Source: Chrysomallon squamiferum
Lineage: Eukaryota; Animalia; Mollusca
NCBI GenBank assembly: GCA_012295275.1
Contig: CM022671.1
Coordinates: forward strand, 27,590,001-27,654,000
Length of the DNA: 64,000 nucleotides
Reading direction: 5' to 3'
Positions within the stretch are counted from its first letter, which is position 1; each line of letters begins with the position of its first letter. The position numbers and the translations under genes are program-made. Below are positions 13,501-63,747 of the stretch, piece after piece. The notes below the pieces were generated by a model. The model was not told the DNA's origin and made no database searches. It saw only the letters and a program-made list of their open reading frames with translations.

Positions 13501-16369
13501 TATTCCAAAGGAAGATTATTAAATGCAGATCTAGTTTTATTACATTTCCTATTTGCCATACTGAAAAAGGAAAACAAAAAAAAATAGTTTCATTTATCCA
13601 AAGACCCAAAGAAAAACAGAAAACAATAAATCAGAAATAGATTTACATCAGAATCTTCATGCTTAGCAACTCCATGACAGTAGAATGGTTGATTATTGAT
13701 CAGTAGTTTAGTGCTTGTCACTTTGATTGTCCTGATTCCAAATGGCAAACGATATATATCCTGACCTTCTGTCGATGTCATAGTTACCTTCATTACAAAA
13801 TAATACATTTCAAACTGACAATGATAACAACAAACTAATAATCTCAGGATAATTATTCAATACATTTTATTTAGCATATTATTAAAATAACATGAAATGA
13901 TATGAAATATACTTTTTTATTGAAATTATATTCACCTGATCTGAAATTCTTACCACTTTTATGAATGTACAATTATAAAAACAAAAAAAAATAAAAATAA
14001 ATGTAACAATAAAAATGACAGCTAAATGAAGTACTAAAAATGTGAATAACTATTAAATAAATTGCTAAAACAAATACAATAAATATGCAGGAACAATAAA
14101 AATATTAATAATTACATCATTAACAAAAATAAAAAATATAAGAAAGTAACTGCAACAATAAAAGAATAACTTATATAACTTTAAGGTGTAAAAATACGCA
14201 GGTGTAGAATTTTTTTTTTTTTTTTTTTTTTTTTTTAGATAATATATATGTTTTTAAATTGTTATCTATGATGAAATCAGGTACCTTAAGTGTGTAGAGA
14301 TATGCAGGTGAAGTAATATTCATGTTTTTTTAAAATAAAAATGTTTTTAAATTATTATCTATGGTGAAATCAAGTACCTTCAGTGTATAGAGATATGCAG
14401 GTGAAGTAATGTTCATGGTGTAAGGATACCAAAACACAGCACTGTTCACTTCAATTGTTCCTGTCATCTGATTACTACTTCCAACAGTATGACCTTGTTT
14501 GTCAGTGACTTCCACTTTAACAGCTAGTGGACTAGTTACATTTCCTTGTGCTATCACAACATAATGTACTATACCTTGTTTAATAAATAAATAAATAAAC
14601 AAATTAAAAAGAAAAGAAAAAAGAAAGATGACTGATATCAGACATGGTTACTAAATAAAAATTAAAAACATGAAATTAAAAAAAGATAACTAATATTAGA
14701 TATAATAACAAGTTTATTTTATGTTTTGGAACATGAAATAAATCAAAACTGCTTAATTTCTTAATTTAAATTCTGCATTTTAATAAAATAAATAGTTTCC
14801 TTCAGTTTTTCAACAAGTAAAATCAATTGATTATGTAATCTATTATTATGAATCTATTACTGGTTTTATAATAGGTGAAATATTTTTTTACCAAATCAGT
14901 TCAATGTAAGATGCTAACTGGTGACTGAAAGTAGTATTAACTTCACTTTATTCTTTAAGATTGTCTGGGAGTATTTTATTATTAAATAAAATATAAATTA
15001 AATGTAATGTAGATGGAGTGCATATCAAGAAGTACCACTACAGGCTGTCTGTTAAACTGTTAAATATTACCTCCTAAATTTTTACGGTGTTAAAAGTATA
15101 AAACTATGAAGTAAAATGAACCTGTGGAGAAATGTGCAGATTCCTAATTACAATTTTTTTATATAAATTGTTGCTTTATTTGTTTCACATTCTTGGAAAT
15201 ACACAAAATACATTCAGGTATTTTGTCTTAACAGGCAAATGTCAGTATAATTTCTAGATATCACACCAGCAATATTAATGATCTGGTAGTTATAGTAGTA
15301 TTTAGTCTGCTGATACCTTTAGAACCTTGGATGTCTGTGGTAACTGTTATGTCATCAATATAAGTCCAAGGAGTGGTATACAGTCGAACATGTCGATGCA
15401 ATCCAGCATAATTGAAAAAATCCATCTGAAGATTTTGAGTAAAGTAACCTGGAGGATATCTGTAATAATACAATAAATAAAAAAACAAATGGTTTAAAAA
15501 TACACTGGAAATATTCCATACAGTTTACAAATAAATAAGTAACATGAATTATTTGATAAACTGATATAGTGTTATACACATATACATCAATGAACATATT
15601 ATATTTTTTTGGACAATGGTATCCAAAGAAACTTTTTGTCATGTGATCATTGGTTAGCAGCAAGATAACTTTTACACAGATGCTCTTGTAGGAAAAATAT
15701 AAACCACAGTGTTTAGAGAAATTATGAGTTTTGGCAACACAGAGAAAATGTTGGAATGAGAAACAGTGTAAATGTAAATATTGCTTTATGTGAGATAGGT
15801 CATTCAATATTTCATTCCTCTGACAACTATCTAAACTACTGTCTCCTCTCATCTTTAATTTAAAAACGTTTAGGTGTAGATATATATATATATATATATA
15901 CATGTATGTACGTTTGTCTGTATGTATGTATGCAAAGAAATTACGTAAGTTGTATTGTGTTTAACTTTTAAAATACATTTATACTTTTTTCTGTCACTCT
16001 GGTATGTGATGGTTCCTGGGGGCAAAGTGTGAGGAGTCAGTGTATTGTTAACAGCTACTGTGACACGATTCACACCTGTAAAGTCCAGAAACTCGTTAAC
16101 AACACCTTCAAATGGCAAGTGTCCACCATCATGAGTCATTACCAATTTGGAGTTAATCCACTAAATTAAAGAAGAAATAATAAATAAATAAATAAATAAA
16201 TAAATAAATTAATTAATTAATTAGTTAATTAAAAAATCAAGATTATAGTCAGCTATTAACTGAAAACTATTGCTTTTACAAAATTTTTAAAATGCGTAAT
16301 TATATATGTACATTGAAAAGATTTACTTCTTTACTTGGGGGAAGAGCTGTATTCCTACCTTGAATTCAG

Positions 16370-16424
<55 letters not shown>

Positions 16425-16922
16425 CCTACCAAATGTCATAGCAAAATAATCTGAATGGAAAATTATTCATCATGTTTCCATTTAGAAGTAAATATAAAAA
16501 TCTGCTGTCTAAATTGAAAGTTAATAGTAAAAGCATATAATAAAATTAAATAAATTAATTAATTAATATTAAATTGTTTTAAATTACAATCTTACCACAA
16601 CTGCATAATAATGTGCACTTTCAAATCTGAGAACAACCCGTCGATTCCTCCACTGACTGTCAACATAAAACTGCCGATCATACCAAGCCCAGCCTACAAA
16701 ATCTCTGATAGCTTTTTCCTGAGTTATGTCATTGTAGCTGGATGGTACTGCCATTGGAATCACGGGTCCTGTCTGAAAAATGTTAGATCATACTGCTTAA
16801 ATATAGACTCTGAGATTTTATAATATTCAACTATTGAAACTACCTTTACCATTTATATTGTTATTATTTTGTATATTAACAACTTTTTATTTCTTGCTCA
16901 ATGAGTATAACCAAAGTAATTA

Positions 16923-16967
<45 letters not shown>

Positions 16968-17398
16968 TTATTTTTTATTAATTTACCCCACCCCGTTAAT
17001 TATTATTTTAAAACTGTTTGTTTAAATATAAATTCTTAATACATACGGTTTTTATTATTTGTATCTGTGATTATGTAGTATGTGTTTAAGTGTGTTTTAC
17101 GGCAAAATGAACATGCTAATAATTTATAATTAAACATTATTTTGATTTGTATTTTATGACACACTTGTCAAAGCCGGTTCCGCACCTTAGACAAGGGGGC
17201 GTCGTACCATTTTTGTTCAAAACTAGCATTTCGATTTGATGACTGATCTATTTTAAAATTCCACATCCCATCGAGACTTTGTATATTTCTTGTTTCTGAT
17301 TCACGTGGATATAACATTCCTTTTAAACATGAACAGGAATAAAACGAAAGCTGAATTAACAATAAAACCGACAACATTTTTATGACTCTAGCCGACAT
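10545..17398 (-). CDS. GUSB: Beta-glucuronidase (GH2); exons 17186-17398, 16596-16772, 15985-16160, 15317-15459, 14378-14574, 13647-13787, 13103-13278, 12380-12529, 12058-12142, 11504-11680, 10930-11063, 10545-10705; apparent frameshift in exon 11
   Basis: Signal peptide followed by [43 protein letters not shown] (acid/base Glu), TEYGAD (nucleophile), WNFADF and GNKKG. Twelve exons; phases are consistent except exon 11. Confidence 0.95.
11127..11340 (+). mobile_element. Tigger/pogo-type DNA transposon end fragment resembling Tigger4 (Zombi)/MER46, in GUSB intron 10
   Basis: Begins CAGGTAGAGAATCCATTATCTGAAATACTT...GAAGTGTCGGATTT...TTTCAGATTTTGGAATAT and continues TTTCATATACAGCTTA...AATTTTGTGCAGAAAATAAAGTTT. 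This is collinear with the Tigger4 5' end as I recall it. No second TIR was found. Confidence 0.55.
12532..12628. repeat. (AAAATA)n microsatellite forming the pyrimidine-rich tract of the GUSB exon-8 acceptor
   Basis: Hexamer run read directly; it produces the spurious FYFYFY prefix of ORF 12277-12648. Confidence 0.95.
14248..14417. repeat. Direct duplication (~77 bp, period 93) of the GUSB exon-5 3' end and donor site
   Basis: 14248-14324 is near-identical to 14341-14417; both encode [13 protein letters not shown]|gt on the minus strand. Confidence 0.9.
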
Positions 17399-17529
17399 AT
17401 TTCTGTCATGTGATTACAATAAAAAGGTTATTTTTAAAATTTCCGGAATAATTTGTATTTTTTCGTAACATTCCGTTGGATCAAGATAGTGAATAGGTTT
17501 GAGGGCAATACATTCTTGTTATTTAGAAG

Positions 17530-17898
17530 TAATAATGCAACGTCGTCGGGAGGTACAGCGTGTTCATAAATAAATAATTAAAAAAATATTTTTAACAATA
17601 TCAACAACAACAACAAATAATAATAATAAATAAAATAAAAGCACGAAGTTATACGAACAGCAAACAAGTCCATCCCCCCTAAAAAAGATATAAAAAGATT
17701 TTCTACCACAAAACATAATAATGCAACGTCGTCAGGAGGTACAGCGTGTTCATAAATAAATAATAATTTTTTTAATTTTTAACAACATCAACAAATAATA
17801 ATAATAAATAAAATAAAAGCACGAAGTTATACGAACAGCAAACAAGTCCATCCCCCCCAAAAAAAAAGAAATAAAAAAGGATTTTCTACCACAAAACA
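17530..17898. repeat. Two-copy ~185-bp tandem repeat just upstream of GUSB
   Basis: taataatgcaacgtcgtc...gcacgaagttatacgaacagcaaacaagtccatccccc...ttttctaccacaaaaca occurs at ~17530-17714 and ~17716-17898. Confidence 0.9.
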
Positions 17899-18223
17899 CG
17901 AATGCAAAAAGAGAAAGAACAGTACAACATCGACTTCATAAAATGACACTTTTAATTTTGATGCAGTTGTCAAAAAAATCCCCCAAACAAAATAGCACTT
18001 TGAAAATATGGCGAAAATTGTAGCCATATTTTGTCATTGTTTTAACACTCGGAACATATTTTCTAGGAGTGAAATCTTTCTGGATGCCACATGTTTTCTT
18101 ATTCAACGCCATGTAGGCTAATGAATCACAAAGAGAAAATTGTGAGAAAATCAAACAGCAAATAAAAGTGGTAAAGTTATAATTATCATTTCCACAAAAT
18201 ACAGCAGTTTATGCAAGTGGAAC

Positions 18224-20045: not shown

Positions 20046-20236
20046 TCAGTTGCTCAAAGAATCTCTTCTACTCCTCAAAGAATATCCTGAAATACAGAAA
20101 CAGTGATATTATTACAAATATGCAAAAACGGTAAACTATTTAATATAACAAAACAAACAAAAATCCAATGAATGACAAAGCTGTTTATCCCTAGGTGATT
20201 GGGCTAATCTCATCTTCCTCATTTTGTTTTATTCAC

Positions 20237-20269
<33 letters not shown>

Positions 20270-23200
20270 TTTTTTTTTTTTGTGGGTCTATAATGTTTTT
20301 AAATTTGAAACATTGAAATAATATTTAATTATGAAATCCCTTAATTTCCATAAAAACATAAAAAATGAAGCTGTTCTACTTTTTTAATCATTTCTAATTT
20401 TCAAATTTGACATTTTTATTAATTATCAATATAAAAATCAGTGAAAGATTAAATAATTAAATCATACACTATACAGCTGATATTTCAACTTACTTCTCTG
20501 CTGCACCTTTTTATCATCAGATTTTCTGAAAAGAAAATGTATATTAATACAAAACAGTAAGCTACAGGTTATTAATGATTTGTGCATGCATTTATAAGAC
20601 ACTGTCCTTGTACATCTAGATGGAAAGGATTATTCATTGTTTTTGTTCTATCAAATTTTAATTTTTCAATTTTCTCCAGTTTGTTCCTTTAAAAAATTAA
20701 ACTTAAATATTATTATAATTTTAAAAAAATCCAAGAAATGTTACAAATTAATTTTCATTTGAGGAATTTTAATAAGCTAACATTGAAAAAAATACATATA
20801 GTGACACCAAATAAATTCTTCAGAATTAGTAAACACAAGTAATACACATGTCACTACTTTTTGAATACACCAACCTTGCAGAACTTGGCACTTTCTGTAC
20901 TTTAGTCTGAAAAAGATAATTAGGAAAATTTCAGTGCTGCATTATGATACATAAATTTTCTAGTATTATTCTTTTGAATATAAACAATATTTGTTATGTC
21001 TGCTTTGAATTTATTGTATTAACAATATCAATACATTTTATACTGCATGATTTTTAATTACTTCTTTTCAGTGCTCAGAAATTATTAATTCACATACAAC
21101 CATTTTTGTTCATTTACTACAATTACTAACTTCAAGTATAACATATCGACATTTTACTGATATGTGCAATAATTAATCTAAACCATTCACTTACAGATTC
21201 TGTTTGCACGTCTGCTGCTTTGGCTTTTTTCCTAGGCACCTTTTCTACTTCAACATGTTTCAATTCTTTCTGTGAAGAAACACTTTTTCTAGGCGTTTTG
21301 ACATTTCCTCTTTTTTGTGGTGAAGTTCTTTTTCTTGAAACATCTTTTTCATCACATTCCTTTGATTCTGGCTTCTTTTCATCTATGACGAGAGTTTTTG
21401 GTAAAGCACCCTCACCATGAGCTTGTGCAATTGATTTTTTTCTTGTTGATCGTTTTAGTTTGCTTGGTGACTCTTGTCTCCGAGGTGAAACATCCGTTTT
21501 TTCTAAATGTTTATTTTCTATCTGAGAAGACTTTACAGCACTGCAAACTGGACTGCAGGGTTTAATTCTGGAAGAATCCAGGCTTTTGGATGGAGATAAT
21601 AATTGACCTTCCAAGTCCAAAGAATCAGGATTATCAAATGAACTCAACTCCATTTCTGCTGCACCTTTGACAGAAGTTTTTATTTTCTGTACAGCTGAAT
21701 CAGGGTTGACAGATGATGAAACTAAGTTGTCAGATGAAGTATTATGTTTGTGCTTACATGGACTAAGTTTGTTATTTTCTAATGAAATAGTTTGCTGTTT
21801 GCAAGTAGAATTTTGTAACAATTCAGGAGTTTCATTTGATGTGGTTGACGTTTCCAAATTATTACCTTCTGAAGAAGTAACCTCCATATTCTGTTTTTTA
21901 GATGTTAGAGAAATCTCATTATCCCTTTCATTTAATTCTCTTTCTGAATTCAAAGACTTCTTCCTTGCAGTTTCACTTTCTGAAACATTTTCATTTTGTT
22001 TCCTTTTTCTTGGAGAAACTTTTGGCAATCTTTCTGATAAAAGAGCATTTCCAGAGGCAGATTCTGCACTGAAACCCTCAACTTCTTCCTGTGACAAATC
22101 TAAATGTTTAACACATTTAATCTTGGTGACTTCAGGTTTCTCAGACACATTCTGAACTGGAGACGAAAGCTTTGAGATTAAAGGTGAGAATGAAATTTTA
22201 CCTTCCTCATCTGAACTGATGTCAAAGGTAACTGAAAATGTTTCCAATGGTCTTTTTTCAAACGGAGAACTTCACTGGTGTTTGTGTTTTCTTTGTTGGA
22301 GAAGTTTTAACCAGTTTAGTTTTAGATGGAGAAGATTTAACCAAATTAAGTTTAGATGGAGAAGATTTAACCAAATTAAGTTTAGATGGAGAAACAGGTT
22401 GAGAACTGTTGGACTGAGATTGTACTGGTGCATCTACATCTATAACTTGAACACTTTCATCATCAGAAATATATCCGACATCTTTTTCAGCCACGTCAAC
22501 GATGACATCTCTGCCGTTTGTTCTTTGGTTAGAAACATCCAGCATTACCTGCTAATAAAGAAAATAAATACCCGGTTTTTTAATTTATACATTACATTAT
22601 TTTTAACCTTCCTGACAGTCTTACACCAACAAAGGTATTTTCACCCAATATATTATTTACCAAAATTTTACTGACATCTATTTGCTACTGTATGACCAAA
22701 TAATTTTAATGAACACTAGAATGATTTCAGTCCATCAGCATTATACCAGTCAGTCATGCTTTGAATCAGACTGGGGCGGTAATTAATCATCACTTTGGAT
22801 ATGACTGAAGAGTACATAAAGAACCAAATAATATATGGATGCACATTACTAGGAATTGTCAGAACAAAATTTTCCACAAATGCTGATGTTACATAGAATT
22901 ACCAGAGGCTTTTTCACTTGATTTAAAAAAAACATACAAAAACAAATCTGAATCAATGTTGTATATTAATGTTACTGCATGAACAATTTCTAAAGTCTGG
23001 ACAAATACCATTTCAATTTTTTTATTTTATTTAAGATTATTCTTTTGTCTCACCTTTTCCTCTTCCAAATGCTTTTTTCTTTGTGAATGTTCTGTAGGAT
23101 TTTCAATTTTTTCTATAGTGTCTGTATTGAAATGTTTCCTAACTGGAGAAATATTTTTGAAACCTTCACCAGATTTAGTTGATTTTCTTCTTGATTCATT

Positions 23201-26200
23201 TTTTATTTCTTTCACACATGCTTTCTCTTTTGTTATGGATTCTAAATCTATTTCATATACTTCTACATCAGAATTTTCTGCACCTTTTTCAAACACTGCT
23301 TCAATTTTCCCTGCCTGATCTTCTGTCAGCTGCAAAACAGTAAGTGTGCATTTTAAAATGTAGAGTAAATGCATTATCACAGCATACTTAACAAAACAGT
23401 TCTTAGATCAAGTTCTGGAAATTCTGTTTCACAACATTTTAAAGAAAATAATGCATTTAGTAATGATAGTAAATGTCCATCAGAAAAGACCAGTCATTCA
23501 TGAAATAAATCAGACTGGGGCGGTATATAATCATCAAAGGACAAATTATTAAATTCTGACATTCTCATTATTAGAAAAGAGTTCTGTGTACATCACATTT
23601 ATTAAAGATTAAAGCAGGAAAAAAATTAATGTTTAAATTAAGAATAAGTATCATGTCATTCAAAAAATTAGTTGTATATGAAACCTATACTCAGGCAAAA
23701 TATACAAGACATGAACACATTATGAAGTAAAGGGATTTTAGAAGCAAAAGAATTTTAAATTTTGAAACTTGTTTTTTTTTCAAATGTGAATTTTTTAAGA
23801 AACCAACCATATTATCTTTCTTATTGATGCATTTTATTTTCTGATCTGTATCTTCAGTCTTTATCTATTGCAAAAGAAAAAACATTATTTCCTGTTACTG
23901 ATAAATAAAAATTGTTATACACACACACACTCTTTATTAGATAGAAGTTATTGATTACCTGAACAGTCCTAATTTTGAAACATTTATTTTTCTTTATACA
24001 GAGGGCTAAAAATTATCATTATCATATTACTATTACAAAATGTTAAAAAAACAAATCTGGATATGCTATCAAATTAAAAATTACAAAAAACTGAATAAAA
24101 AATCAGACAAAACAGAAAAAATACCCCCCAAAACATCCAAGAAATCTTATCAAAAGCATTTATTTTATACCTTTAATAACAATTGGTAATAATGTAGGAT
24201 TTGAAGATTTAATTTCAGAATAATAAATGTATTAATCAGTCCTTCAGACTAGAACCAATCAATCATGAATAAAATCAGACTGGGGCGGTATTGAATCATC
24301 ATTCAGGACAAACAAAATTACAAATAAAATTCAATATCTGCCACTGAAATAAAAATGACCGATAACAAAAGATAATGGAAGAGGTAACAAAACAAAAGAG
24401 AATATAAATAAAATGCCAAAAATTATTTTACTTACCTCAGACTGTTTATTTTGGACAATTCCTTGTTTATTTTTCTGTGGTGACTGTTTAGATTTGGTAA
24501 CATTGTCTTCTTCATCTGTTAAAATGACAATATCCGATTCGTCAGAACTTCTGTCATTATCACAGAGTTCATCAGTCAGGTCTAAAACTCTCACATCTTC
24601 AACAATCTCATCAACCACCGTTTCCTGCAATGAATTAAATATATACACTCATAACAATTACTTTAATTAGGATGTGAACCGAGTTGAACAACTCCACAAC
24701 TATAAATAAAAAAACACACACACACACAAAAAATGGATATATACACTGTTATTTGTAGGATTGGACCTGAAGCTATATAAAATTGACATTCTTTTCACCA
24801 TTTCCTCAGTAACTGAATGTTACATATTTGGTCATTTATTTATTCTTGTTAAAAATTATCATCAAGGAAAATTTTCTAATATATGCAGACCCAAAATTAT
24901 AATTACTAGATCCATTACCTTGTGTGAAAGTTGTATCATTTATTTTTTAATCTAAGATTAGACTGGTTTTATGATTCAGAAATGTACCAGTCAGTCATGA
25001 TTTAAATCAGACTGGGGCGGTAATAATCATCATGAAAATACAATCTAACTTATTTTAATGGTGTTCTAAATATCTTCTGTAATAGTTTTATTTATACCAA
25101 TATTTTACAGCAGAATTCAATCTGGAAACATAATCTACTACATTAGTTTATCCTGATCATTATTTGTCAAACACCAATTCAGCTTGAATTTTAGTTCGTT
25201 TTTTACTATGTGTAACCAGTGCAACGGTACACATCAGACATTATTTTAATATATGGCTGGTTTGGACAGGTCATAATTGGATTATCTGATTTTCTAATCA
25301 TTATACAAGAATAAACCTAACAATAAAAATAAAAAAAATAAATAAAAGAGAAATCACAATAAAACAATTTTCTAAGTTATCTCTCAGTGTATAGATTTAT
25401 CAATAGTGCTAAATTTGTTAATGTCAGAGATATAGTGATTTATTTAAATATGATTAATGTTCTTCAGATCAATACCAGTCAGTCATAAATAAAATCAGAC
25501 TGGGGCGGTTAAATCTAACATCACTAGAACATCACTTCACATTATTACAAACAAGTAGATAAAGTGAATCAGACAATTAAAGAACTATTTCATTAAACAC
25601 TCCTTTTTACATTGAAAAGCAACAGATTTTGTACTTAGGTATCACTAAACATTCATTAGTAACTCATCTTTCTATAATATCTATTATAACAAAAAAAAAA
25701 AAAATGTTTTAATAATAAATTAAAAAATACATACAATTAATAAATAACACAAATAAAAAATATTAAAATCTGAAGACTGTTTTAAAATTTTTTAAAAATT
25801 TTTAAAAAATAATACGATAAATATATATACATACTAAGAATACACTTGCTAAACCCATTTGCCCAAAATTCAAGGGCAATTGCAGACCCAGTTTATAATT
25901 ACTAGATCCATTACCTTTTGTGTGTAAGGTGTATCATTTACATTTTTATCAACTGGCTTTATAATTCAGAAATGTACCAGTCAGTCATGATTAAACTCAG
26001 ACTGGGGCGGTAATAATCATCATGAGAATCAAATCTAACTCAATTTAATGATATTCTAAATGATTTCTGTAATTACTTTTATTTACACTGATATTTTATA
26101 GGAGAATTCAGTCAGGAAAAATAATCTACTACATAAGTTTATTCTGATCATTTTATTATTTGTCAAGCATCAACTGTCAAAATACAATATTAACTACTTC

Positions 26201-29200
26201 AATAAATAAATTCATAACCAATTTCAGTTTGGATTTTAGTTCCAATTTTACTATTTGTAAGAACTGCAATTTGTAAGAAGCATAAACCTAACAAAACATT
26301 TAAAAATCTAGATCCATTTTTATCAAAAAATAAAATAAAATAAATACAACAATTTTCTATGTTATCTCTCAATATTTAGATTTATCAATAATACCAAATT
26401 TGTTAATGTCAAAGATAGAGGGATTTATTTAAATATTATTAATGTGTCCTTCAGATCAATACCAGTCAGTCATAGATAAAATCAGACTGGGGCGGTTAAA
26501 TCTAACATCACAAGAACATGAATTCACATTGTTATGATAAAGTGAATCGCACAATTAAAGAATCACTTCATTAATAATTCATCTTCCTATAATGTTTATA
26601 ATGGCAAATAAATAATGTTTTTCTTTTGCAGACTGCTATATTTATTTATATATTAAAAAAAAAAAATGTTTTATGACTGCTAATATGACAAATATATACA
26701 GATATTAAGAATACACTTACTAAACCCATTTGTCCAAAATTCAAAGGTAATTACATGAATTTCTAATTATGTATCAGTTACTAGTACCATCAGCCAAATA
26801 AAATTTTAACAAACAGGTTATTTCTTTTTAAAAATCAAAATATATAATCTGCATTGGTCACCAGTATCTTTATAAAGTCCCATCTTCTCTGATCCTTAGA
26901 TGCAGCTAAAATATTTTAAAATATCAATATTTTTAAACTTAAGTCAATTTTATTAAAAAGAGTCCTTCAGTACATTACCAGTAAGTCATGAATAAATCAG
27001 ACTGGGGCGGCATACATGTATCATCATGTAGGACTCCAAATTATACTCTGTTATACTATAGCTTTAAAAAGAAAAAATTCTGTATATTCTTATAATGAAA
27101 TTATGTTATGGTGTAATAAAATCACTTTTTTTTAACCTTTTTATTGTTTTGAGTCATCTAAACATAAACACAGATATGTAAACCTTGTATAAATACCTGT
27201 TTGTTCTTTTCTTCACCTTTTCTGTCAACACAAAAAATGACATCTTCAATGTTTTCTCCAACACTGGGCTGGAATTATAAAAAAATGAAAAAAAAATTCA
27301 AAATAAAACAATTAAGATTCACAGAGGAGTTGATAAAACATGGAAAATTTGATGATAAATTTTTTTAGTTCAAATAACCAAAAGAAAGTGTGGAAGAATT
27401 TAAAATTATAAATACCTCTACATTAACATATGACGTAACATCTGGAGTCTGTAATGATGTACCATCTTCATCTTTATTTGTATGTGAAATGGCAGAAGAA
27501 AGATCAACAGTTAAAACCTGAAATGAAAAATTTCAAACATTTCACTCTAAAGGAAACTTACTCTTCTTTTGACCAAGTTCTGTTGCTAAACTTATAAATT
27601 GTTTTATAAATATACATTCCTAAATGTTCGTAATCCTAACTTGTAACTGGAGAAATTTTTGATCTGGATAAATAAATTAAAACAGAAGAATGCAGCAAAA
27701 TGTGAATCAGTAATGCAAATTAATCTTCTTTCCTGATGAAAACATTTTTTAAAAACTAGTTTGTGAAACAACTGTGAAAATCACTGAAAATCAACTACAT
27801 ATATAATAATCGTACATCTAACAGTAGGGTGTTCAACTCTTCTGTAGTTTCAGTCAGCAAAAAATTAGTAATCTGTCGACCTCTGAACTTTTTATCATCA
27901 GGCATCCAGGCACTAATTTCCCGATTCTGACACCATAACCAGTCCAGAAAACCAAAAGGAGCAGGCACATTTTTTGCATGCTGAAATTTCAAAACAGAAA
28001 TTAAAATTTAACAAACATTTAAAAAATAGAAAGATTTCAAATTCATCATTTCATTAAAGATTAATTATTTTACTGCAATTTGAAATTAATTAATTTCAGT
28101 AATTAATTTCAATAAACAGATATTAATGTTTGTGTTATCTGTTTAAAATAAAATAAAAAAATAAACTTTATTACCTCAAAAACATTGGGAATCTGTTTCT
28201 TGAACTTTACAACACACAGTATGTAACGTAGGTACTGGGCACAGTCATTCAAAGATGGAGGAGTGGTAAGACAAAATCTACCAAATAATAATAATAAATT
28301 AAAACAGAAAAAAGCAACAAACTGACTCAAATATCCATCATTTCCTATTATATACAGTATAGTTAATAACATTTAAGAAAATAAAACTGACCTGGCAAAA
28401 TGAACAGTGAATGGTAGTGAAACATCTCCTGTCTGCTGCAGTAAAACATCAAGGCAACTGGTTCCAAAGTATTTCATAATGTAATTGATAAAGCCAACCT
28501 CTTTCTTTTTCGGCGATTCATCACTGAAAGAAAATTATTAACACTACAGCACGAAGCATATCATGAAAGAAAACTGACCCATTTGTCAACATAAATAAAA
28601 CTTGCTGTTATTAAATGATTCTCTTTCTTAGTTTCTATCAGGATTCAATACTACACTGTTGTACATTAGACATAACAAATTAAATATGTGGTGTCTTTGT
28701 TTATCTGCATTAAACTTTTGAAAACGCTTAAAAAGTGATACATTTTACAGATTCTGGCAGTTTGAAACAGCTTATGAGAAACTGAAGATAATCACAGTTC
28801 AGATCACAAAAATGTTCCTTGACATTTTAACTATTTCATCTTAAACTTTAAATCATAAAATATTTTTATAAACAGATTGATTATTAGAATGAAACAAGTA
28901 ACCACTAAAACAACATTAGTATCTTCACTCATTATACAACTTACCCGTTAATAAGGGAACACAAGTCAAGATACAGTGATACAAGAGATGATACTAAATC
29001 TTTGACAGTAATTTTAGATTTCTTCTTCTGATCCATGGACTAAACACGAAGAGAAAATGAAAACAATGATAAAAACATGTTACTTACTCATTTTATGATT
29101 TTTTGTAAACTGAAAATAATCTGAGCTATTTTTACATAGCTGTGTAAAAATAGATTTCACAGATATCCAAGATATAATCTATCTATTTAAAAACAGTTTC

Positions 29201-32200
29201 ATCTACAAACCAAGTTAAAACAGGAATTACTGAACATGTGTAATATTTTTTTAATTCATTATCAACTTAAAAGCAGAGATTAACCATTTTAAGTTGTTGG
29301 GAGGTTTTTTGTACCTGAACATGCCTTGTCATCAAAACAGTAAAACAATTTTTTAAATGTTCTTGCAGCTTCATGGCTCTGAAAAATTAAAATAAAATTG
29401 TCAAAATTTTGGAATTTTAAATTAAATAAAAACAGGAGAAAAACATTCATACAAAATGAAATGCAAACTATTACTGACATAAATTAATATTTTAAAATAA
29501 AACATGTATTTTGCAGAGTACAAAATGCATACATTGACCAATTCAAACTTTACTTCAAAGGTTTAGGGTAGAAGTGCCCAACTGTTTATGAAGTGGTCAC
29601 TATTAAATATATATATATATATATATATATACAACTTTAAAAAAAAAAACCTTGTTTGTTATGCGAGTTCAATATTATTTACGATTCCACTAGTTATTTT
29701 ACAATGGGTTGAAAGCAATATAGGTAAATCTTCATATTTTCAACTGGCTGGTTGCATGTTGAGTAATACATCTACAACTTAATACGTCTTAATTTAAAGT
29801 ACAGTAGCTGCAACATTTGTCTGTCTGTCTTACTATACCAAACAAGAGACTGATTTTTATAAATCAGCATCCTTCAGAAATGTACCAGTCAGTCATGATT
29901 AAAATCAGACTGGGGCGGTAATAATCATCATGAATAAATTTGATTTAATGTATCTTTTTTCTCTAAAGTGTTCTGTAATCTAACTTTTTAAAATATAAAA
30001 TTAAACATCTGATTCACAGTATCATTCAAAAATAAAAGTATTAACCCCACCAAAAATAATATTTACCTTTTTATCTTGTGTTTATTCAAACATTTCTCAA
30101 CTTCAGGTGCAAGTTTGCTATACAAGAACAAGTTAGAACATATTAATGAGTATTTTACAAGGCAACAAAATAAAAATAAAAATCATGTTATAGCTGCTTT
30201 TACAGAGAAGTAGGTGTCTGTTCAGCAATATTTTCATGTAAAAATTCGGAAGAAAAAACGCATAAAAAAACACCATTCTGAGTAAATAAATATTTACCTT
30301 AAATAAATATTCAGAATCTTCACAACATTAAACATGTCAGCAACCACAAGAAGTCTGTCAAGCAGAGTCATCCAATAAAGACTGCGCTTTTCTCTTGAGA
30401 GCGACAACTAAACAAAAAAAAATGTATTTAGTTAAATAAAAATCGGTAATACATACTCTTCTAGGAAAAGAATTTTACTCTTATTCATCTTATTAAATTC
30501 ATGGATGGTTGTAAATACAATAATTCTTCTGTGTTTATCAGGCACAACTTGTGTGTGTAAACAAAACACATCAATCAATGCTTTAATACAGGACTTACCA
30601 AACTACTGTCAAACATCTGCACCTGTTGATTAATGTCATCAATTGGTATTTTCTCAAGTGATTTCATCAAAGAGCCAACACCTAGAATGTACAATACAAA
30701 TCACTGAATGTTAACATTTTTACACGTATTTTATTATACCAATTTCATTTCAGTTTGCTCTAATTAATGTTACAGGAAATTTAAAATACCAAGTTTTTAA
30801 ATTTGTTTTTAACTGAAATGCACACAGTTCATAAATATAATATATTCAGTTAATTTTAACTAAGGTTATACAAACTGAAATCAGTGATTATATTTACTAG
30901 ATGAAAATGCTTAGATTGCAAACTAATCTACAGTTTCAACTATTAAAACAATTTCCATCATTTTTGAAAAACAATAATAATCATGTCTTACAAATATGTT
31001 GTTTTTTCACTAGTTGGTTGTTTTCTGAGGGTGCTGAAACTCCCTCTTTGTTAAAGCTACCATCATTAGTGGATTCCAATATTTCTTTATCAGATGAATA
31101 CTTAGAAATACACCTGAAATTAATAAGAAAAAAAGAAAAAAAAAAGTTTTAACAGAAAATGGAAATTATGTAGAAAAAAGAAAAAAGATAAGTGAATTAT
31201 TTTCTTGTACATTATGTCATGTAACCACAAAAGCTTACAATTTTGAGACAAACCATCTGTTTATAATCAAACTAGTAATTTATTAAAAGTGAATATTTCG
31301 ATAAATTATACATTTTAAAAGTCCAAAGAAAAAACATACTTTATCAAATATTCAAAATACAACTCGATATTGTCTTGCAATTCCTCTCTTAGTTCAGTGT
31401 TTGATATATTTGAAATTCCATCTTTGAATAGACTTTTGGTAATAGCATTTTCTTCTTTTTTCAAATTTCCTGAAAAATAATTAAATGAAAATAACATTAG
31501 TATAAAAAACAAATACATTTAAAATTATGGATTTAAAAGTGATACAAATGCATTTTAGATCTGAACAGTTTTGTTCTTCTTTAAAAGAAATAAGAAAAAA
31601 ATGTACGGTGGCAATACTCCCAATTTTCTCATTAAAAGCACAATAAAATGATTAGATTACAAGATTATGGTTTTAACAAAGTAATTAAGAAAACTCAACT
31701 GGTTTATATTTTCAAGGCAAATGATTTTATGGCTTATCTAATCTGCTATGTTTAAATAAAAGTATTGTTGATAGTGTATCATATAAGGAAAAATTATTTT
31801 GTCTGTGAAAAACTGAAGGTAATCCATTACTGATAATTAATCATTAAAGAAACAAAGAAAAAATAAATAAATAAATAAAACAGGCAGTTAATTCATCTGA
31901 ATTCTGGAAATGCAAGCTGTTTTGCTCACTATTTTACTTTTTAAAAACATTAAATCTTTTTAAACTGGTTTATGATTATCATTATTTAAAGTGGAGAGTG
32001 AAAATATATGGAATTATTTTCAATACCAATATTGCAATAACAAAGGAAATCAAGGGTAAACCAGGATGTTGTACCACTTGATAAACTACATAGAATTAAC
32101 AGACAAGTTTACCATTTCAAAATGATCATCATGCAACTAAGGTAAGCTTATTTTGGTACTTCAGTGTCTGCAAACTTCCATACACATAGTCCGAGAAGTT

Positions 32201-32670
32201 CAATGTTTCATTTATTTTAGTGAGTGTCATGAGTTATGTGGCATAATGTCCAGTATAGTGCAGTTTTATACAACTTTTTTTTTCTGATAATGTTGATTAC
32301 AAAAAAAAATTTGTAACAAGTTAGATTATTATGATGTTTATTTTTATTTTTTGTAGATCTGCATAATCATAATGAAGGCAAATGGGAAATTAACACTAAT
32401 TACTGTTTTTATATTATATATTAGCATAATACCTGAAATAAAGGTCTCTGCAACACATTAAAACTTTCATCTTAAAAAAATGGTCATTGAATATTTCAAT
32501 AATCTATTACTTCAGTACTTTTTAATTTCTGTTGACAAAGTCAATGATAATTAAATTATTCAGGTATAACTTAAGGTACATATTAGTATTACATTTGTGC
32601 TAATTACAAAATCAGTGCAGTTAACTAAAAATAATTGAGCATTACCATTAGAATTCAATGAAAGCTTCAT
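20046..32670 (-). CDS. Uncharacterised ~1077-aa protein and snoRNA host gene; coding exons 32646-32670, 31340-31469, 30992-31113, 30599-30681, 30298-30407, 30067-30117, 29315-29378, 28945-29039, 28392-28523, 28175-28277, 27816-27980, 27416-27517, 27197-27268, 24436-24624, 23808-23864, 23054-23329, 21195-22548, 20875-20906, 20494-20525, 20046-20086; probable 5' exon ending at 33034
   Basis: Twenty GT-AG exons join in one open frame, apart from one extra base in the 1354-nt exon. The N-terminal ~360 aa look globular/helical and the rest is low-complexity acidic, SP- and K-rich. No family recognised; the start codon is less certain than the internal exons. Confidence 0.75.
22303..22392 (-). repeat. 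Coding 30-bp tandem repeat, ~3 copies (SPSKLNLVKS)
   Basis: agatttaaccaaattaagtttagatggaga is repeated; also visible in ORF 22258-22545. Confidence 0.9.
22731..22799 (-). ncRNA. SNORD31: Box C/D snoRNA SNORD31-like, copy 1
   Basis: GTGATGA...TACCGCCCCAGT-CTGA(D')...ATGACTGA(C')...CTGA(D), TCCA/TGGA terminal stem, in intron 22549-23053. Confidence 0.88.
23474..23543 (-). ncRNA. SNORD31: Box C/D snoRNA SNORD31-like, copy 2
   Basis: TTGATGA box C, TACCGCCCCAGT guide + CTGA, terminal CTGA, TGTCC/GGACA stem, in intron 23330-23807. Confidence 0.87.
24239..24309 (-). ncRNA. SNORD31: Box C/D snoRNA SNORD31-like, copy 3
   Basis: ATGATGA, AATACCGCCCCAGT-CTGA, terminal CTGA, GTCCT/AGGAC stem, in intron 23865-24435. 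Confidence 0.88.
24972..25037 (-). ncRNA. SNORD31: Box C/D snoRNA SNORD31-like, copy 4
   Basis: ATGATGA TTATTACCGCCCCAGT CTGA TTTAAATC ATGACTGA CTGGTACATTT CTGA. Confidence 0.86.
25457..25532 (-). ncRNA. SNORD31: Box C/D snoRNA SNORD31-like, copy 5 (variant box C GTGATGT)
   Basis: ACCGCCCCAGT-CTGA, ATGACTGA, CTGA, with a 7-bp ATGTTCT/AGAACAT stem. Confidence 0.82.
25962..26028 (-). ncRNA. SNORD31: Box C/D snoRNA SNORD31-like, copy 6
   Basis: Near-identical to copy 4; all boxes and the guide are intact. Confidence 0.86.
26445..26519 (-). ncRNA. SNORD31: Box C/D snoRNA SNORD31-like, copy 7 (variant box C GTGATGT)
   Basis: Near-identical to copy 5; guide and D'/C'/D boxes are intact, terminal stem is imperfect. 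Confidence 0.8.
26960..27036 (-). ncRNA. SNORD31: Box C/D snoRNA SNORD31-like, copy 8
   Basis: ATGATGA, guide TGCCGCCCCAGT (one G-U wobble), CTGA boxes, perfect 7-bp GAGTCCT/AGGACTC stem. Confidence 0.87.
29869..29935 (-). ncRNA. SNORD31: Box C/D snoRNA SNORD31-like, copy 9
   Basis: Near-identical core to copies 4/6, in intron 29379-30066. Confidence 0.86.
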
Positions 32671-33009
32671 TTTGATACATACTGTTTTGAAACAATACAA
32701 GATATTCAGTGTTTTATACACTCAGACACTGTATAATGTATTATGAGTATGTGTGACACAGTTAAAAATGTTTTAGTTGCCAAATCAGAAAATGACAATT
32801 GTTTATGAATAGTGAAGAAAAAAATACTTGCGAATTTTATTCAGATAGATCAAAGAGATCTTGGTGCCATTTTTATCTGCTTTTTTTTTCCCCTGTCATT
32901 CTGGTGATACACAATTTTATAGGAAAATTCTATTTCTCATTTTTCTGAACATTTTGTCACATACCTATACTTTATAAGACCCAGTCTACATCTACCAGTA
33001 AATTATTAA

Positions 33010-33660
33010 AACGTCGAAACCATATACATTTACCTCCATCATGCACGCATTGCTGGGCAATGCGTTTTGTTACTTTGCGCGCTAGTTTATTCATGACTGT
33101 CATAAGAATAATTCTGCAAACATTTCAGTTCGCAAAACCCCCACGTGTTGCACGCCGAACTCGATCTTCTTGGTAGACTGGACTAAGAGCGGCTTTACAC
33201 GTGTTTCGATTGGACTATAATTCAACCTAGTTAACCAATGGATTCGGCTAAAACATTTAAGTTAACAAAGCTAACATAAATACGTATTTTAATGTAATTG
33301 TTTTTATTGAATAATGATACATAATTTGTTCCACTCTTAAGATATGTTTAATAAATTATTATTTTATATAATATTTTATATTTTTATACTGTTTTTTATT
33401 TTTTACGTATATAGCACAACAACATGAACAAAATTAGCTTTATTAGCAAAGGACTATGGGATAGCAGCGATATAATACAACTCGGTTGGTGATGTTTAGT
33501 CCTTCACTGATTTCATTGTTAAAACATTTTGTAATGATATTAGGTATAGGAAGTGTAAGACAATAATACTGAAGTATTTGGTGCATCTAAATGGAAACGT
33601 CCGACCCTCTAGATTCTTCATAATGGTACCGAAACACCACTGGAAGAAACCAGCTATGTG
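33010..33660. promoter_or_regulatory. Putative bidirectional promoter region (snoRNA host gene / SETD1)
   Basis: CpG-retaining patch with CACGTG E-boxes (~33142, ~33198) between a minus-strand donor (GAG|gtaaat at 33034) and the SETD1 5' end. Confidence 0.55.
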
Positions 33661-33803
33661 AGGCACTAAGACAAGTTTTTGTTTGATTCACAACCGGATT
33701 ACCTATTTGTTATATTTATCCTTAGATATATTATAACATTAATTCTACCTCATTTTATATTTCAGGTGTAAATGGAATTGAAACCTGAGTCCAAGCTGCA
33801 ATC

Positions 33804-36800
33804 ATGGACAAGAAGCGAAGAAACTATAAGCTCATTGTTGACCCTTTTTTACACAGGGGTCAGCAACAGAAAGTTTATAGATTTGATGGTATAAATCCTG
33901 TGGTAAGGACCAGAAAATCGAATTTTGTAAATCATGGAATAATGTCAGAAAGAAAAACTATCAAATTTGGCATATGTCGATATGTGCTACAGCAAATTAC
34001 ATCAAACGTTTAGACCAAATCAGTTCTGATTACTGTTTCTGTCAAATATTTGTTACTGTAATAGAATTTATCCAGTTCCTCATGATTAACGGGACTGTCA
34101 TGATATAATCTTGTTTCATAGGTGAAAAATAATACGCAAAAGTCTTTGATGTGGACTACCATGTGAAAAAAAAAAAGTTCTACGAATACTGTTGATACTA
34201 TCAGCATCATTGTAAATACAGTGAATTCTTTCTTTGGTTAGGTGCATCATGCCTTCTCTATTATGCTAATGGATTTCAAAATCAAGTTAATGGTTTAAAC
34301 TGATAAAGATAATTTATTGGTAGAGTTTATTTTGAAGTTTCACTATTCATTTTTAATATGTTTTTCTATCTATATATTCTCCAGTTTCTGCATCATCAAG
34401 TTGCAAAAGGTTTAATATTAGTGTGAGAAATTTTAAAAATATTTAGGTTTTTGAAACTGATTACTGAAGGTGAAGTTTCTACCTCTGTAAAATCGCAAAA
34501 GCTGTCACCCTTTTTCAGTTTGAATTGCAGGGTGTTGCTTGTATTTGAAAAAATAATAATAATAATAAAAAAAAAAATGTTCTATGGTAAATAGAAAACT
34601 GTAGTAGAAAATTGAGAAATAGAATATTTTGGTTTAATATAATGTTAGAGAAAATGTGTTTGAAGAATATAATCCAGTGAGAAAGAAATCATTTTCAGGC
34701 TTCTGTGTTAAATGTCCCCATTTAATTGAGTAGGATTTGAAAGTTTAAAGAAATATCTCTTTTTCTCCATTAATTGGAGCTAATGTTGTTTAGTACTGTT
34801 CACTGTGTATTTGTTTATTGTTTAATAAGTTTTATCATTTAAAATGAAACATCACACACAGCTTTATTTTCTGTTTTTAGTGATAATAATTTAAACCTTA
34901 AATATTAATTTCTTTTTCTGTTTCAGGATAATCTTTTGGTTGAGGTCAAAGATCCACGACCAAGAATTCAGAGGAGTTGGTTTCGAAGACAACCAGCTGA
35001 TCTTCCGATTCCAAGATTTAAGGTATTTAACTTTTGACTTGTTAAATAAAAATTGGGATCTGTGATTTATCAGTGTGTTGTAATTGTGTATAAATAGTCT
35101 GTTAATTTTGTTTCTGTCAAAAAATCATTTTATGATTATGCAACCTGCTTGGGTTTTTATTTTATCCAGTTTACAAAAGACAAAATTATACTGATACCCA
35201 TTTCATTATTTAGCATTTGCATTTAGGAACATAGCTTGTTTAATTTACAGCTAACTCAGAAGTAGAAAAAGAAATAATATAATATTTTTAATATATCATT
35301 TTTTTTTTTATTAGCACCAATTAATTGTACAAATACAAATATATCAAAAAATTAATCTTTTTATATAATTAATTCAGTTAGTGTTAAATATTTTATATTA
35401 GCTTAGCCACATGATTATTAAAACTTGAATGATTATCTCCCTTGCTATGATGTTGATTTCTTCTGACTTTCAATGTTTCATATTTTTTACCTTAATAGTA
35501 AACCTTCTTCACAAGAATAGTTAGAATCAAAATTATTTGACTTTTTCCAAATGGATAATTTAGCATAAACGCTGTGATTTCTTTTGTTAATTTTACTGCC
35601 TAAAATGATAGATGTTATTATATACCTATTGATCTAATTGTCGTTTGATAAGACTCATGTTTAACCAGCCTGTTATTCAGTTTTTAATAAAAAAAAATTA
35701 TTACAGAATTCCATCTGGTTTTTAGAGTTTTATAAAAACAAATGTTTTAAATATATTACTTGATATTACTTTTTTCTTACTTTTAATATTTTTTAATACG
35801 TTTATTTATTTATTTTCATAAATAGTATGACTGTTATTATGTTGGAACACCTCCTGCCAAGGAAGTAACTTTCAGCAATCTAAATGACAATGTCAACAAA
35901 GACTTCTTGGAAAACATGTGCAAGTCATTCGGCAAAGTTGAAGAGTCTAAGATATACTACAATCCCAAAACAAAGAAACATATGGGCATTGGAAAGGTAA
36001 GACACATACACATAAAACCAACAACACATTTTGTTTCAAATTCGTCTTGCACAATTTCAGAATCTTGGGATTCTTTGATATTTTATATTTCTCTGTTGCA
36101 TACAAAGCATGGAAACTGCACATCAATTGAATGTTTCAACACACTGGACACATCGACAAAAGTCCAATTGTTTAGTGGCAAGAAACAAATTACAATGCAA
36201 ACAGTGGATGTATTTTAATCACTTTTTTCTTCTTTTTTTAAAAATAATTTGTTGCAAAAGTTTTAGAATGACATACTTGTTAATTTTCTCTTTGTAATAT
36301 CCATTTTTTGTTATCTTTATAAGGTTGTCTTTACATCGTCCAAAGCTGCCAAATCATGTGCAGAGAAGTTGAATCAAACTTCCAAGATGGGAAACATAAT
36401 GACTGTTGTTGTGGATACTATGGGTAAAAATCTTCTCATTACCTCTGAATGTCAGATTAGTTTAAAGCTATTCATTTGTTTTTTGATGCCTTAAATTCAA
36501 CATTCTTGTTGAAATAAAAACTGTTTTGAAGAAGATGCTCAACACTTGCCTATAAAGATAATTGAAAATCTGAATAATTTACAGAATGTAATTTTTAAAT
36601 CATAATTTTATGTGGTTTTCAATATGAATTGAGTTTCTAAAACATACTTGAATTAATGTATCTTTGATGGATTTAGTAGAAATATAAATGTTTCAAATAA
36701 AATCACATATAAATTATTATTTTGCTAAGGATAAACTATTACATAAAAAAAAAAAAATTTGTATAGATTGTTGTGTTTATTTCATTATCTCTATGACAAC

Positions 36801-39800
36801 AAATAAAATTTAAAGTCAAATACTCCAGTATTTAATTACATCAGATTAAATAGTAAAAATAGTACATTAATAATGTATTTGCAGTTTGAAACAATTTATA
36901 TTTATTGCTACTCCAGATTAGAATACAACAGTTGTTAGATTGACAGATTCCTAATGATTCATATTTATTGTTGAATGTTTGCAGGAAAAGAAAGAGCAAA
37001 GATGATCGAGGACATTCTAAATGATCGGCGTGTGCATCACTTGCAGAAATCTTCAGTTCAGGACACTGGAGTTCTGGCTGTAAAAAACAATGTAAGAAAG
37101 GAAGTCTATGACCCTGGAGACAATGAATATGAATTTAACAGACACAATACAAGCTTTGATTTTACACCTCGTTCTGTCCAGTCTGAGAGTGGTTACTCAG
37201 GTTCAATATCAGAAAGTGGATTTGCAGGTCCAACACCTTCATCTATTCATTCAGATCATGGTCACGCATCTGGGCATTACCCAGATTCATTCAAGCAACC
37301 ACCCTTTTCTGCAGGAAACAGGTTTGAACCTGATTTCAATTCCCATCATTCTGTATCTCAGGACTTTAATTATGGAATGAACAGTTTTGGTAACCACCAC
37401 AATGCTGCTGGACCTAATTATGATGACAGTGGTTTTACTCAAATGAATCCTCCAAAGTTTGATCCCACCCGTCCACCACCTAACCATCCAGATTTTCTTC
37501 GAAGAGAACATGAACCTGCATACCATGATTCAGATCGATTCTATAAAGATGGTGATGTGTCAAAACAGGATAATTCACGTTCTTTCAACTCAAGTGATTA
37601 TAAAGATAGAGGGTGGCATAATGACAACAAACACTGGACAAGTAACAGAGGACGAGATAAAGCAAAAGATCGTAATTGGGATAGAACCTGGGAAAGAGGT
37701 CATGACAAGGAAAGAAATAGAGACAGATTTAATAACAGAGATAACAATCGAGACTCTAATCGCAGTAGACATTATGACAGAGGTAACGATTATGTTCAGG
37801 ACAATGGTTTACGTGATAAAGAACACAGTCGAGATTGGGAAAAAGAAAAGCCCACAATTAAAAGCAAGCCAGCAAAGCCAAAAATACCTGTGGAAGAACC
37901 AGATGAGGAGCCTCGGTCTTTGAGCCTTGAGTCTAGAATTCAGAGTCTTCTCACTGGAAATGATCCAGATGCTGAACTGGATTCTCCCAAAACAAAACAT
38001 TCTGAAGGGTCCCCTACACCACCACCTCAAACTCCAAACACATGGAACAGATCACCTCACCTCTCTTCTAATCAGGTTCCTCAAACTCCAACAACTTATG
38101 ATCATGATAAAAATTCTACTTCTTGGAGGTCATCGGGACATCACATTCATCAAACACCTATAGAGTCACCTTGGCCACAAACTCCTATGGTGCCAGAATC
38201 TCCTTGGCCTTCACAGACACCCAGTATTCAAACTCCTACACAACCATCTGATCAGAATACATTTGGAAATCATTCAGCTGATAAACTGAAGCCAACACCG
38301 CCTGTGTTTGACAAAGGATACAATTCACAGCAAGACTCAAATCAGTCTCAAAGCACATCTACTGCTACTACAACTGTACAGCCAGAAACAAACAATGTTG
38401 CTCCTGATGATGATGATGACGATGACAAAATGTCCATATCATCCATTAGTAGTGGTGATGAGAAATTGGAAGTTAATTCTCAGATTCCAAATAGTACCAG
38501 CCAGCCTTCTTCAGTTCCAAATTCATTTCACCAGACAATGCCTATGTTTAATCAGGGTCCTATTCCTAATCCATGGCAAAGTGGATTTGTCAATCAGGGA
38601 GCCTATCCACCGACATATAACAATTTTATTGGTGTTAATCCATTTAATCAAAACTTTTGCAATCAGTATCAAAATGATATGATGAATGCACAAATGATTA
38701 ATACCTATGGCAATCAGGTGGGTTTCAAGGAAGAGGAGAAAGTATTCGATATTGATGAGAAATTGTTTAATTCTTCACTCAATAATTTTGTAAAAGACTT
38801 GAAAGAAATCTTACAAAAAGATTTGTGTAAAAAGATGGTGGAAAATTCTGCATTCAAATCCTTTGAAAACTGGTGGGACAAAGAAGAAGAAAAAAGAAAG
38901 GTAGAGTTGTGCTTGATAATTTCTGATTTTAAGAAAGATATTTTTAAAGATAGATAAATACAGCAGAACACTATTTAAATGTATATCAAGCAGCAGCATG
39001 TCATTATAGGTATTTTAATAACTGAAGTATTTATATTCTGAATTGAAATCATCTATTTCTGAATATTTTAAATCACTTTTAAGTTACGAGTAATTTTCAG
39101 ATAACAGTTATTAAATTTTTTATTTACTTAATAGGATTTAATTAGAAAAATGAAAAATCACTTCTTGTTTGTCAAACATATATTTTGGAAGGCATTTATT
39201 TGTCATAAGTCCCTAATGGTGTATGGTTACAGGCATTTTCATTTATATTTTAGCCTCCAAAGTTACTAGGAGCTCCAGAAAAACCTGAGAAGCCATCTCC
39301 TGCCAAACCAGCAGCAGCCAACCAGCCCCAGTCTGCAATGAGTTCAACTATAGCTTCACTGTTTGAAAACCGCCACCCCTGGAGTCGAGAAGGTGGCTTG
39401 GAAAACAACATGGGCTTTGGGCAAGGATTTGGTGTTGGAGGACTGTTAGGTTTGCGAGGTGCAATGCCTAAGATGCCATCATTTAAGGTCAGTAGACATT
39501 CATACTATATGAACATATAATTGTAAATGTACATACATTTTAAGATTTCACCAGTATTTCGATCCTCTTTTCTCTTATGAATTTAATGTCGAATGAATGG
39601 AAATTTGTATGCTTCAATTATATCATGGTTGGAAGATTGATATGTGGGCGATTTATTATTTTAAAACAATATATTTTCTTTCATTTTACTTAATGTTATC
39701 TATGTCTTTTTTCAACTTTACATAATATGCATAATTTTCATTTAGTTACAGAAAGCAGATAAATCTACATATTTTGAGATTATTAGTTTTAACTGTAAAT

Positions 39801-52679: not shown

Positions 52680-63747
<11,068 letters not shown>

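Follow-up and report, generated by a model that had tools for sequence, protein, structure and literature searches.

Nine SNORD31-type box C/D snoRNA genes in the introns of an uncharacterised coding gene of the snail Chrysomallon squamiferum, five of them in one shared intron

Analysing a 64,000-nt stretch of the Chrysomallon squamiferum genome (assembly GCA_012295275.1, contig CM022671.1, positions 27,590,001 to 27,654,000; hereafter the window, whose own numbering is used throughout), we found that it carries nine minus-strand genes for small nucleolar RNAs (snoRNAs) of the box C/D type within introns of a single host gene (Table 1). An exact 14-nt string of guide plus box D' occurs nine times in the window, always on the minus strand and between 22766 and 29918, compared with a chance expectation of 0.03, and none of 100 shuffles reached nine; the nine units that the initial annotation had placed here are therefore present. 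A tenth match with 2 mismatches, at 39323, was set aside as unrelated. Eight of the nine copies pass the gathering score of the Rfam family SNORD31 (RF00089), with 40.2-51.2 bits, but copy 2 remains below it at 33.4 bits (E 5e-4), so that the nine Rfam hits that had been expected came out as eight and one weaker match. No snoRNA family other than SNORD31 reached the Rfam gathering score in the window. By sequence criteria, the nine units are SNORD31/snR67-type box C/D snoRNA genes, as had been proposed. In the literature searched, mainly open-access, we found no report of SNORD31 from a mollusc and none of an intronic snoRNA host gene from a gastropod.

Table 1. Positions of the snoRNA copies, their host gene and other features in the window.
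Feature	Position	Strand	Remarks
Copy 1	29874..29931	-	alone in predicted 688-nt intron 30066-29379; Rfam 49.1 bits
Copy 2	26967..27027	-	first of five in large intron; Rfam 33.4 bits, E 5e-4
Copy 3	26451..26511	-	in duplication unit 1; box C ends in U; Rfam 40.2 bits
Copy 4	25966..26023	-	in duplication unit 1; weakest terminal stem; Rfam 48.1 bits
Copy 5	25464..25524	-	duplicate of copy 3; box C ends in U; Rfam 44.8 bits
Copy 6	24976..25033	-	duplicate of copy 4; last in large intron; Rfam 50.4 bits
Copy 7	24244..24302	-	alone in predicted 571-nt intron 24435-23865; Rfam 44.0 bits
Copy 8	23480..23537	-	alone in predicted 478-nt intron 23807-23330; Rfam 47.7 bits
Copy 9	22735..22793	-	alone in predicted 502-nt intron 23053-22552; Rfam 51.2 bits
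14-nt guide plus D' matches	29905, 26997, 26482, 25997, 25495, 25007, 24275, 23510, 22766	-	exact match
Host gene	20050..33103	-	~20 exons, ~1,090 codons; GT-AG at all 19 modelled introns
Large intron	24625..27196	-	2,572 nt, GT-AG, phase 0; holds copies 2-6; RNA joint in 3/3 runs
Tandem duplication unit 1	25886..26760	-	spacer, copy 3, spacer, copy 4
Tandem duplication unit 2	24895..25885	-	spacer, copy 5, spacer, copy 6; spacers 81% identical to unit 1
Beta-glucuronidase-like gene	5500-17400	-	Glyco_hydro_2_C (Pfam)
SETD1	33790-44800	+	
RING/B-box/NHL TRIM gene	49234-51387	-	single exon

The claim that the host is protein-coding is supported by RNA splice joints, a long open frame and a homologue in Haliotis rubra (XP_046549539; 31% over 393 aa, E 2e-45, across the first eleven host exons). 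The frame stays open for 704 codons from the ATG and breaks near 22272, after which another frame continues to the last exon; the break is probably a one-base assembly error. At this place in a long host exon (22258-22275, minus strand), one frame ends in a stop at 22258, and a second one runs open for 379 codons from 22271. The encoded protein consists of a helical N-terminal part of ~380 aa and a long low-complexity region rich in acidic residues, Ser and Lys. A 30-nt tandem repeat in a host exon (22292-22393) encodes repeated Ser-Ser-Pro-Ser-Lys units, and by eye both the host tail and the Haliotis homologue contain several hydrophobic-acidic stretches resembling SUMO-interacting motifs and many Ser-Pro sites. 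With one host exon as query, eight proteins were found at E<=0.001, seven of them true relatives; P0021, a PKD-repeat protein, was discarded as a chance match. Other relatives include a 1,326-aa cluster member from H. asinina and Batillaria BaRGS_00020854, and all relatives are annotated as uncharacterised. Judged by these relatives, the host is a conserved, uncharacterised gastropod coding gene. Word-based searches with two single host exons found nothing, Pfam found nothing at cut-off in six host open reading frames (ORFs) of the window and the homologues, an Atlas search of the host family gave scores all below 0.9, a PDB sequence search of the family returned nothing, and tblastn of the host protein against the loci fetched for comparison gave no match. 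A structural model of the Haliotis homologue (pLDDT 59.8) had no Foldseek match at E<=0.001 and resembles only generic helical-repeat folds (best Z 9.7, root-mean-square deviation 4.4 over 195 residues).

All nine copies lie in introns and in the sense orientation of the host, in agreement with the initial annotation, four of the five introns (those of copies 1, 7, 8 and 9; 478-688 nt) being predicted from GT-AG ends and frame continuity. The exons flanking the intron of copy 1 fall within the host region aligned to the homologous protein. For the fifth intron, contigs of three ordinary RNA-seq runs from one study were compared with positions 24400-28300, and in each run a single contig carries the joints 27816/27517, 27416/27268 and 27197/24624 together. 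The last of these excises one 2,572-nt intron around copies 2-6. The nine copies are thus laid out in five introns with five copies sharing one, a sharing that the earlier description of an intronic array had not included. No splice joint within the large intron was found among the contigs of the three runs, which drop rare isoforms, and contigs cross the candidate internal splice sites unspliced. Unspliced intron pieces of 138-316 nt are found at low depth near copies 4-6 in all three runs and could derive from pre-mRNA, from DNA or from stable fragments of the intron; the intron bins that RNA does not cover (about 25055-25316 and 26234-26626) carry no weight. Since contigs of run X5 cover the unique flanks between copies 2 and 3, 3 and 4, and 5 and 6, with depth in all 30 bins, and differ from the window at scattered sites including several indels, the repeat does not appear to be an assembly artefact. 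One C/D snoRNA per intron is described as the predominant animal rule (PMC11028025); fly and silkworm C/D genes are reported as one per intron, with fly intronic clusters composed of H/ACA genes (PMC3089462), and in mammals two snoRNAs in one intron yield snoRNA-ended long non-coding RNAs (sno-lncRNAs) (PMC11028025). Copies 1, 7, 8 and 9 fit the one-per-intron pattern by prediction, and copies 2-6 depart from it in the assembled mRNA.

Counted from box C through box D, the snoRNA bodies are 58-61 nt long, and 32 of 58 aligned columns are invariant. Box D is present in all nine copies, D' is invariant, and the guide is intact throughout. Box C is exact in six copies, reads UUGAUGA in copy 8 and has a final U in copies 3 and 5, a variant also carried by the expressed fly snoRNA CD5a (PMC11014333). 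The C'-like heptamer equals the Rfam consensus in the three alignments displayed, and three copies deviate in it by a single base; the guide of copy 2 begins with G. Because the stretch upstream of box D varies among copies, they have no second guide in common. All nine copies retain a short internal stem, which joins the 5' end of the guide to the bases following C' and shows covariation across 65 distinct copies (39 A:U, 11 G:C, 2 G:U, 0 A:C and 13 unclassified), a set of window copies and fetched loci whose related sequences are not independent. The claim that the divergent terminal stems still pair stands in part: the four stems that had been quoted are present in copies 9, 8, 5 and 2 (short in copies 8 and 9, long in copy 5 and 7 bp in copy 2), but stem strength is uneven, and copies 1, 4 and 6 have no comparable box-adjacent stem, a more distant duplex being found in copies 1 and 6. 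Flank duplexes exceed shuffles (fraction <=0.015) in four of the nine copies (2, 5, 6 and 7), are middling in copies 1, 8 and 9 and are weak in copies 3 and 4. Folding z-scores of whole units span -4.6 to -0.7, with -4.0 for copy 5 and -4.6 for copy 6 with its distal flank duplex. X5 differs from the window at 26448, in the 3' stem arm of copy 3, a change that would weaken the stem; no X5 difference is listed in the bodies of copies 2-6.

E. coli 23S ribosomal RNA (rRNA) has a single occurrence of the 10-mer that complements the guide core, at 2247-2256. All nine guides form 11 contiguous pairs with this rRNA, and the base five from D' pairs with G2251. Chicken 28S contains the same target site (PMC2653536, supplement 7). 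Yeast Gm2619 is given as the counterpart of E. coli Gm2251 (PMC11121408), and fly Gm3152 is tabulated as equivalent to human Gm4196 (SNORD31), yeast Gm2619 (snR67), Arabidopsis Gm2620, Xenopus Gm3305 and Dictyostelium Gm2952 (PMC11014333, Table S4). These pairings and equivalences bear out the assignment of the guide to the P-loop G by the D'+5 rule, and all nine copies are predicted to direct 2'-O-methylation of one 28S P-loop guanosine.

Copies 3-6 occupy two tandem units of ~990 bp. Between the units, the snoRNA bodies differ at 3 of 117 columns and the spacers at 136 of 712, with 208 additional gap columns (P 4e-7); restricted to columns variable among the nine copies, the bodies differ at 3 of 50 (P 0.02). 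With guide and boxes invariant in this comparison, the data agree with the description of conserved guide and boxes amid diverging spacers. A single base separates copy 1 from copy 4, and likewise from copy 6, though copy 1 lies 3.9-4.9 kb away in another intron; their 100-nt flanks are weakly alike (z 1.1-3.9, versus ~12 for copy 4 against copy 6), and the remaining copy pairs differ at 7-16 positions. Copy 1 and copies 4 and 6 thus look homogenised, and the likeness of the bodies could reflect purifying selection across the entire body, gene conversion or the two together. For the proposal that the array is maintained by selection, the constraint on bodies above that on spacers is favorable, but gene conversion accounts equally well for copy 1 versus copies 4 and 6. 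No decayed host exons were found inside the large intron beyond short A/T-rich matches, so the array did not visibly grow by duplication of exon plus intron. Repeated local duplication is the likely origin of the nine copies; snoRNA paralogs are described as usually arising when a copy is duplicated in cis into introns of the same host (PMC2653536, PMC4696412).

The host lies head to head with SETD1, their starts being ~0.7 kb apart (33100-33800), and the two possibly share a promoter. An exon of this SETD1 has 79% identity to Gigantopelta aegis and 48% to Haliotis. In Batillaria, the host homologue and SETD1 have close locus numbers (BaRGS_00020854 and BaRGS_00020847) and are assigned to contigs of equal length, which suggests that synteny was kept. 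Two further neighbouring genes, in the region 58400-63900, resemble MRPL44 and VMP1. By eye, a tandem duplication of ~180 bp (17530-17900) is seen just upstream of the start of the beta-glucuronidase-like gene.

We think it probable that the array provides redundant canonical P-loop guides made from the host pre-mRNA, for which the four single-intron copies would suffice. What is observed here is the sequence, boxes, family match, sense orientation and splicing of the large intron; the remaining steps follow the general account of how snoRNA-protein complexes (snoRNPs) are assembled and trimmed. Once cut from host pre-mRNA, the guides would, as established for the family, assemble with fibrillarin, NOP56, NOP58 and 15.5K, and through an 11-12-bp pairing upstream of D' the fifth paired base, which is G2251 when numbered as in E. 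coli, would be methylated. Copies 1, 7, 8 and 9 would mature by splicing, debranching and trimming, which would be enough for function. Least certain is the step in which copies 2-6 would be largely redundant extras, some perhaps released by internal cuts or rare alternative splicing and others poorly made. Purifying selection with occasional gene conversion would keep the bodies alike, no extra dosage being needed. Several points weigh against this account. RNA joints support one of the five host introns and the other four are predicted, as is a mature ~60-70-nt RNA for every copy. The target site was read in E. coli 23S and chicken 28S and is carried over to this snail by analogy. The host is not recognisable as a ribosome or translation gene. 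Moreover, five C/D copies in one intron depart from the described animal pattern, and because they share an intron in which no internal joint was seen, the release route of copies 2-6 is unexplained.

One answer would be that the large intron hides non-coding exons, such that a minor isoform degraded by nonsense-mediated decay (NMD) splices between copies and gives each its own intron. NMD-sensitive snoRNA host isoforms exist, and acceptor-like sites follow copies 2 (26905, by eye), 4 (25680) and 5 (25316), the last with a counterpart after copy 3 in the duplicate, together with a donor-like site at 26721. However, contigs run unspliced across 26905, 26721 and the flanks of copy 4, DNA of 27% GC abounds in motifs of this kind, and 81% identity by itself leads one to expect 12 matching bases; the lack of internal joints in the three runs adds little, since contigs drop rare isoforms. 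We regard hidden exons as rather unlikely. Alternatively, the large intron could be trimmed from its ends only, leaving a ~2.05-kb sno-lncRNA capped by copies 2 and 6 whose five C/D motifs would make it a scaffold or sponge for C/D proteins instead of a source of five free guides. This would agree with one intron being spliced around five copies in all three runs, with the sno-lncRNAs made from mammalian two-snoRNA introns (PMC11028025), with the good flank duplexes of the outermost copies 2 and 6, and with the unspliced pieces near copies 4-6. Those pieces, however, are low-depth contigs that show neither ends nor strand and could be pre-mRNA or DNA, the spacers are 19% diverged with many indels between units, unlike a conserved scaffold, and the inner copies have perfect guides, as expected of working guides; a scaffold RNA is quite improbable. 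Both the NMD isoform and the end-trimmed RNA are compatible with canonical guide production from the other copies. More broadly, five C/D snoRNPs may form on one excised 2.6-kb intron and either be separated by an endonuclease, a step undescribed for animal C/D snoRNAs, or stay on a ~2-kb RNA capped by copies 2 and 6; we find this doubtful, and the ~2-kb RNA, if true, would be an invertebrate sno-lncRNA derived from rRNA guides.

The initial annotation had favoured selected dosage amplification, in which the lineage needs more guide and all nine copies are expressed and kept for their total amount. The guide and boxes D' and D are intact in all nine copies, body conservation exceeds that of spacers even at variable columns, and nine is more than the one to four copies of 53 other loci and of fly. 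However, those loci are mostly short contigs that undercount copies, gene conversion accounts for the likeness with no need of dosage selection, a single SNORD31 is listed for human, in SNHG1 (PMC7154078), and fly Gm3152 is reported as ~96% methylated with four guide copies (PMC11014333). Furthermore, loss of Gm2251 is described as nearly silent in E. coli (PMC7600485) and yeast without snR67 plus two other guides as viable (PMC11121408), the P-loop modification being dispensable or mild alone in these two species. We therefore consider a dosage requirement unlikely. That the array is an assembly artefact or a set of dead repeats is hardly credible: the probable indel error near 22272 and the several indels between X5 and the window would allow for it, but the spacers of the duplication units differ by 19% around invariant guides and boxes, and X5 contigs reach across the unique inter-copy flanks with depth in every bin.

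With redundant guide production as our preferred reading, the array contributes a locus with nine copies of an ancient guide, together with a new host gene, fitting the view of snoRNAs as mobile and locally duplicating; its layout is a known one on a large scale and not a new kind of system. The same transcript offers five distinguishable C/D paralogs in one intron and four copies of this guide in introns of their own, an internal control bearing on whether C/D snoRNAs in shared introns can be released in animals and on whether position or flanking stems determine copy abundance. Its usefulness is limited by the organism not being a laboratory model.

To place the array among other SNORD31-type loci, a metagenome contig scan gave 57 stretches, stored as 54 loci and reduced to 53 after dropping an overlapping duplicate. 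One copy is found in 45 loci, two in 4, three in 3 and four in 1, and 6 of the 15 loci of at least 5 kb are multi-copy; the loci are mostly short contigs, so these counts are underestimates, and some are near-duplicates. Rfam run on 15 of the comparison loci gave 11 SNORD31 matches in 8 loci. Among 66 of 99 nearby ORF pieces from 18 loci searched with Pfam, same-strand coding blocks near SNORD31-type genes include RRM (L006, L019, L028), RPS7 (L010), RPL3 (L009), PRP21 (L031), Nop (L051) and DIP2-like (L027). In particular, hnRNP A1-like RRM genes of three unrelated contigs host 2-4 SNORD31 copies (L028 600-5000, L019 8900-10400, L006 2600-7400), L006 additionally carrying SNORD61, a gene of this type perhaps representing an earlier host of the family among invertebrates. 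In L005 (5970-6215) a SNORD31-type gene adjoins SNORD24, and in L018 (250-2440) three copies within 650 nt lie upstream of SNORA53 with no Pfam match nearby; both are possible non-coding hosts or clusters. In the published record, four SNORD31-type copies are listed in Drosophila Uhg1 and two in Xenopus (PMC11014333, Tables S4 and S6), and it is described as typical for snoRNA paralogs to occupy separate introns of a single host (PMC4696412, PMC2653536). The location of vertebrate SNORD31 in SNHG1 was confirmed for human (PMC7154078), but the contrast that had been drawn with a coding host is nothing unusual: SNORD31-type genes elsewhere are found among RRM, RPS7, RPL3, PRP21 and Nop coding blocks, and coding hosts carry 53% of fly C/D snoRNAs as counted in PMC11014333. 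Thus, neither a coding host nor the presence of several copies is out of the ordinary, though nine copies is many, and it is less usual for C/D genes of animals to share an intron.

Compared with known systems, the snail genes have the same boxes, D' guide, predicted site and internal stem as SNORD31/U31 (RF00089, clan CL00053), yeast snR67, plant U31 and Dictyostelium CD13. They differ from SNORD31 and snR67 in that they number nine and that the stretch preceding box D holds no conserved additional guide; in contrast, Um2724 is a further target of snR67, and a second site has been tentatively assigned to human SNORD31. Drosophila snoRNA:CD2a-d (U31:54E) in Uhg1 likewise consist of several paralogs with one host and one target, but Uhg1 is non-coding and holds six families (16 genes), while the snail host is coding and holds nine copies of this family only. 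The RRM (hnRNP-like) and RPS7 genes of the eukaryote contigs L028, L019, L006 and L010 also have 2-4 copies among the coding blocks of one gene; these are typical RNA-binding or ribosomal protein hosts, in contrast to the uncharacterised snail host, and in L028 and L019 coding blocks lie between the copies, suggesting one per intron, as opposed to five in one intron here. Several snoRNAs per intron are likewise found in fly H/ACA and rice intronic clusters and in mammalian sno-lncRNA introns, but the fly intronic clusters are H/ACA and the mammalian cases are pairs, whereas the snail intron holds five C/D paralogs.

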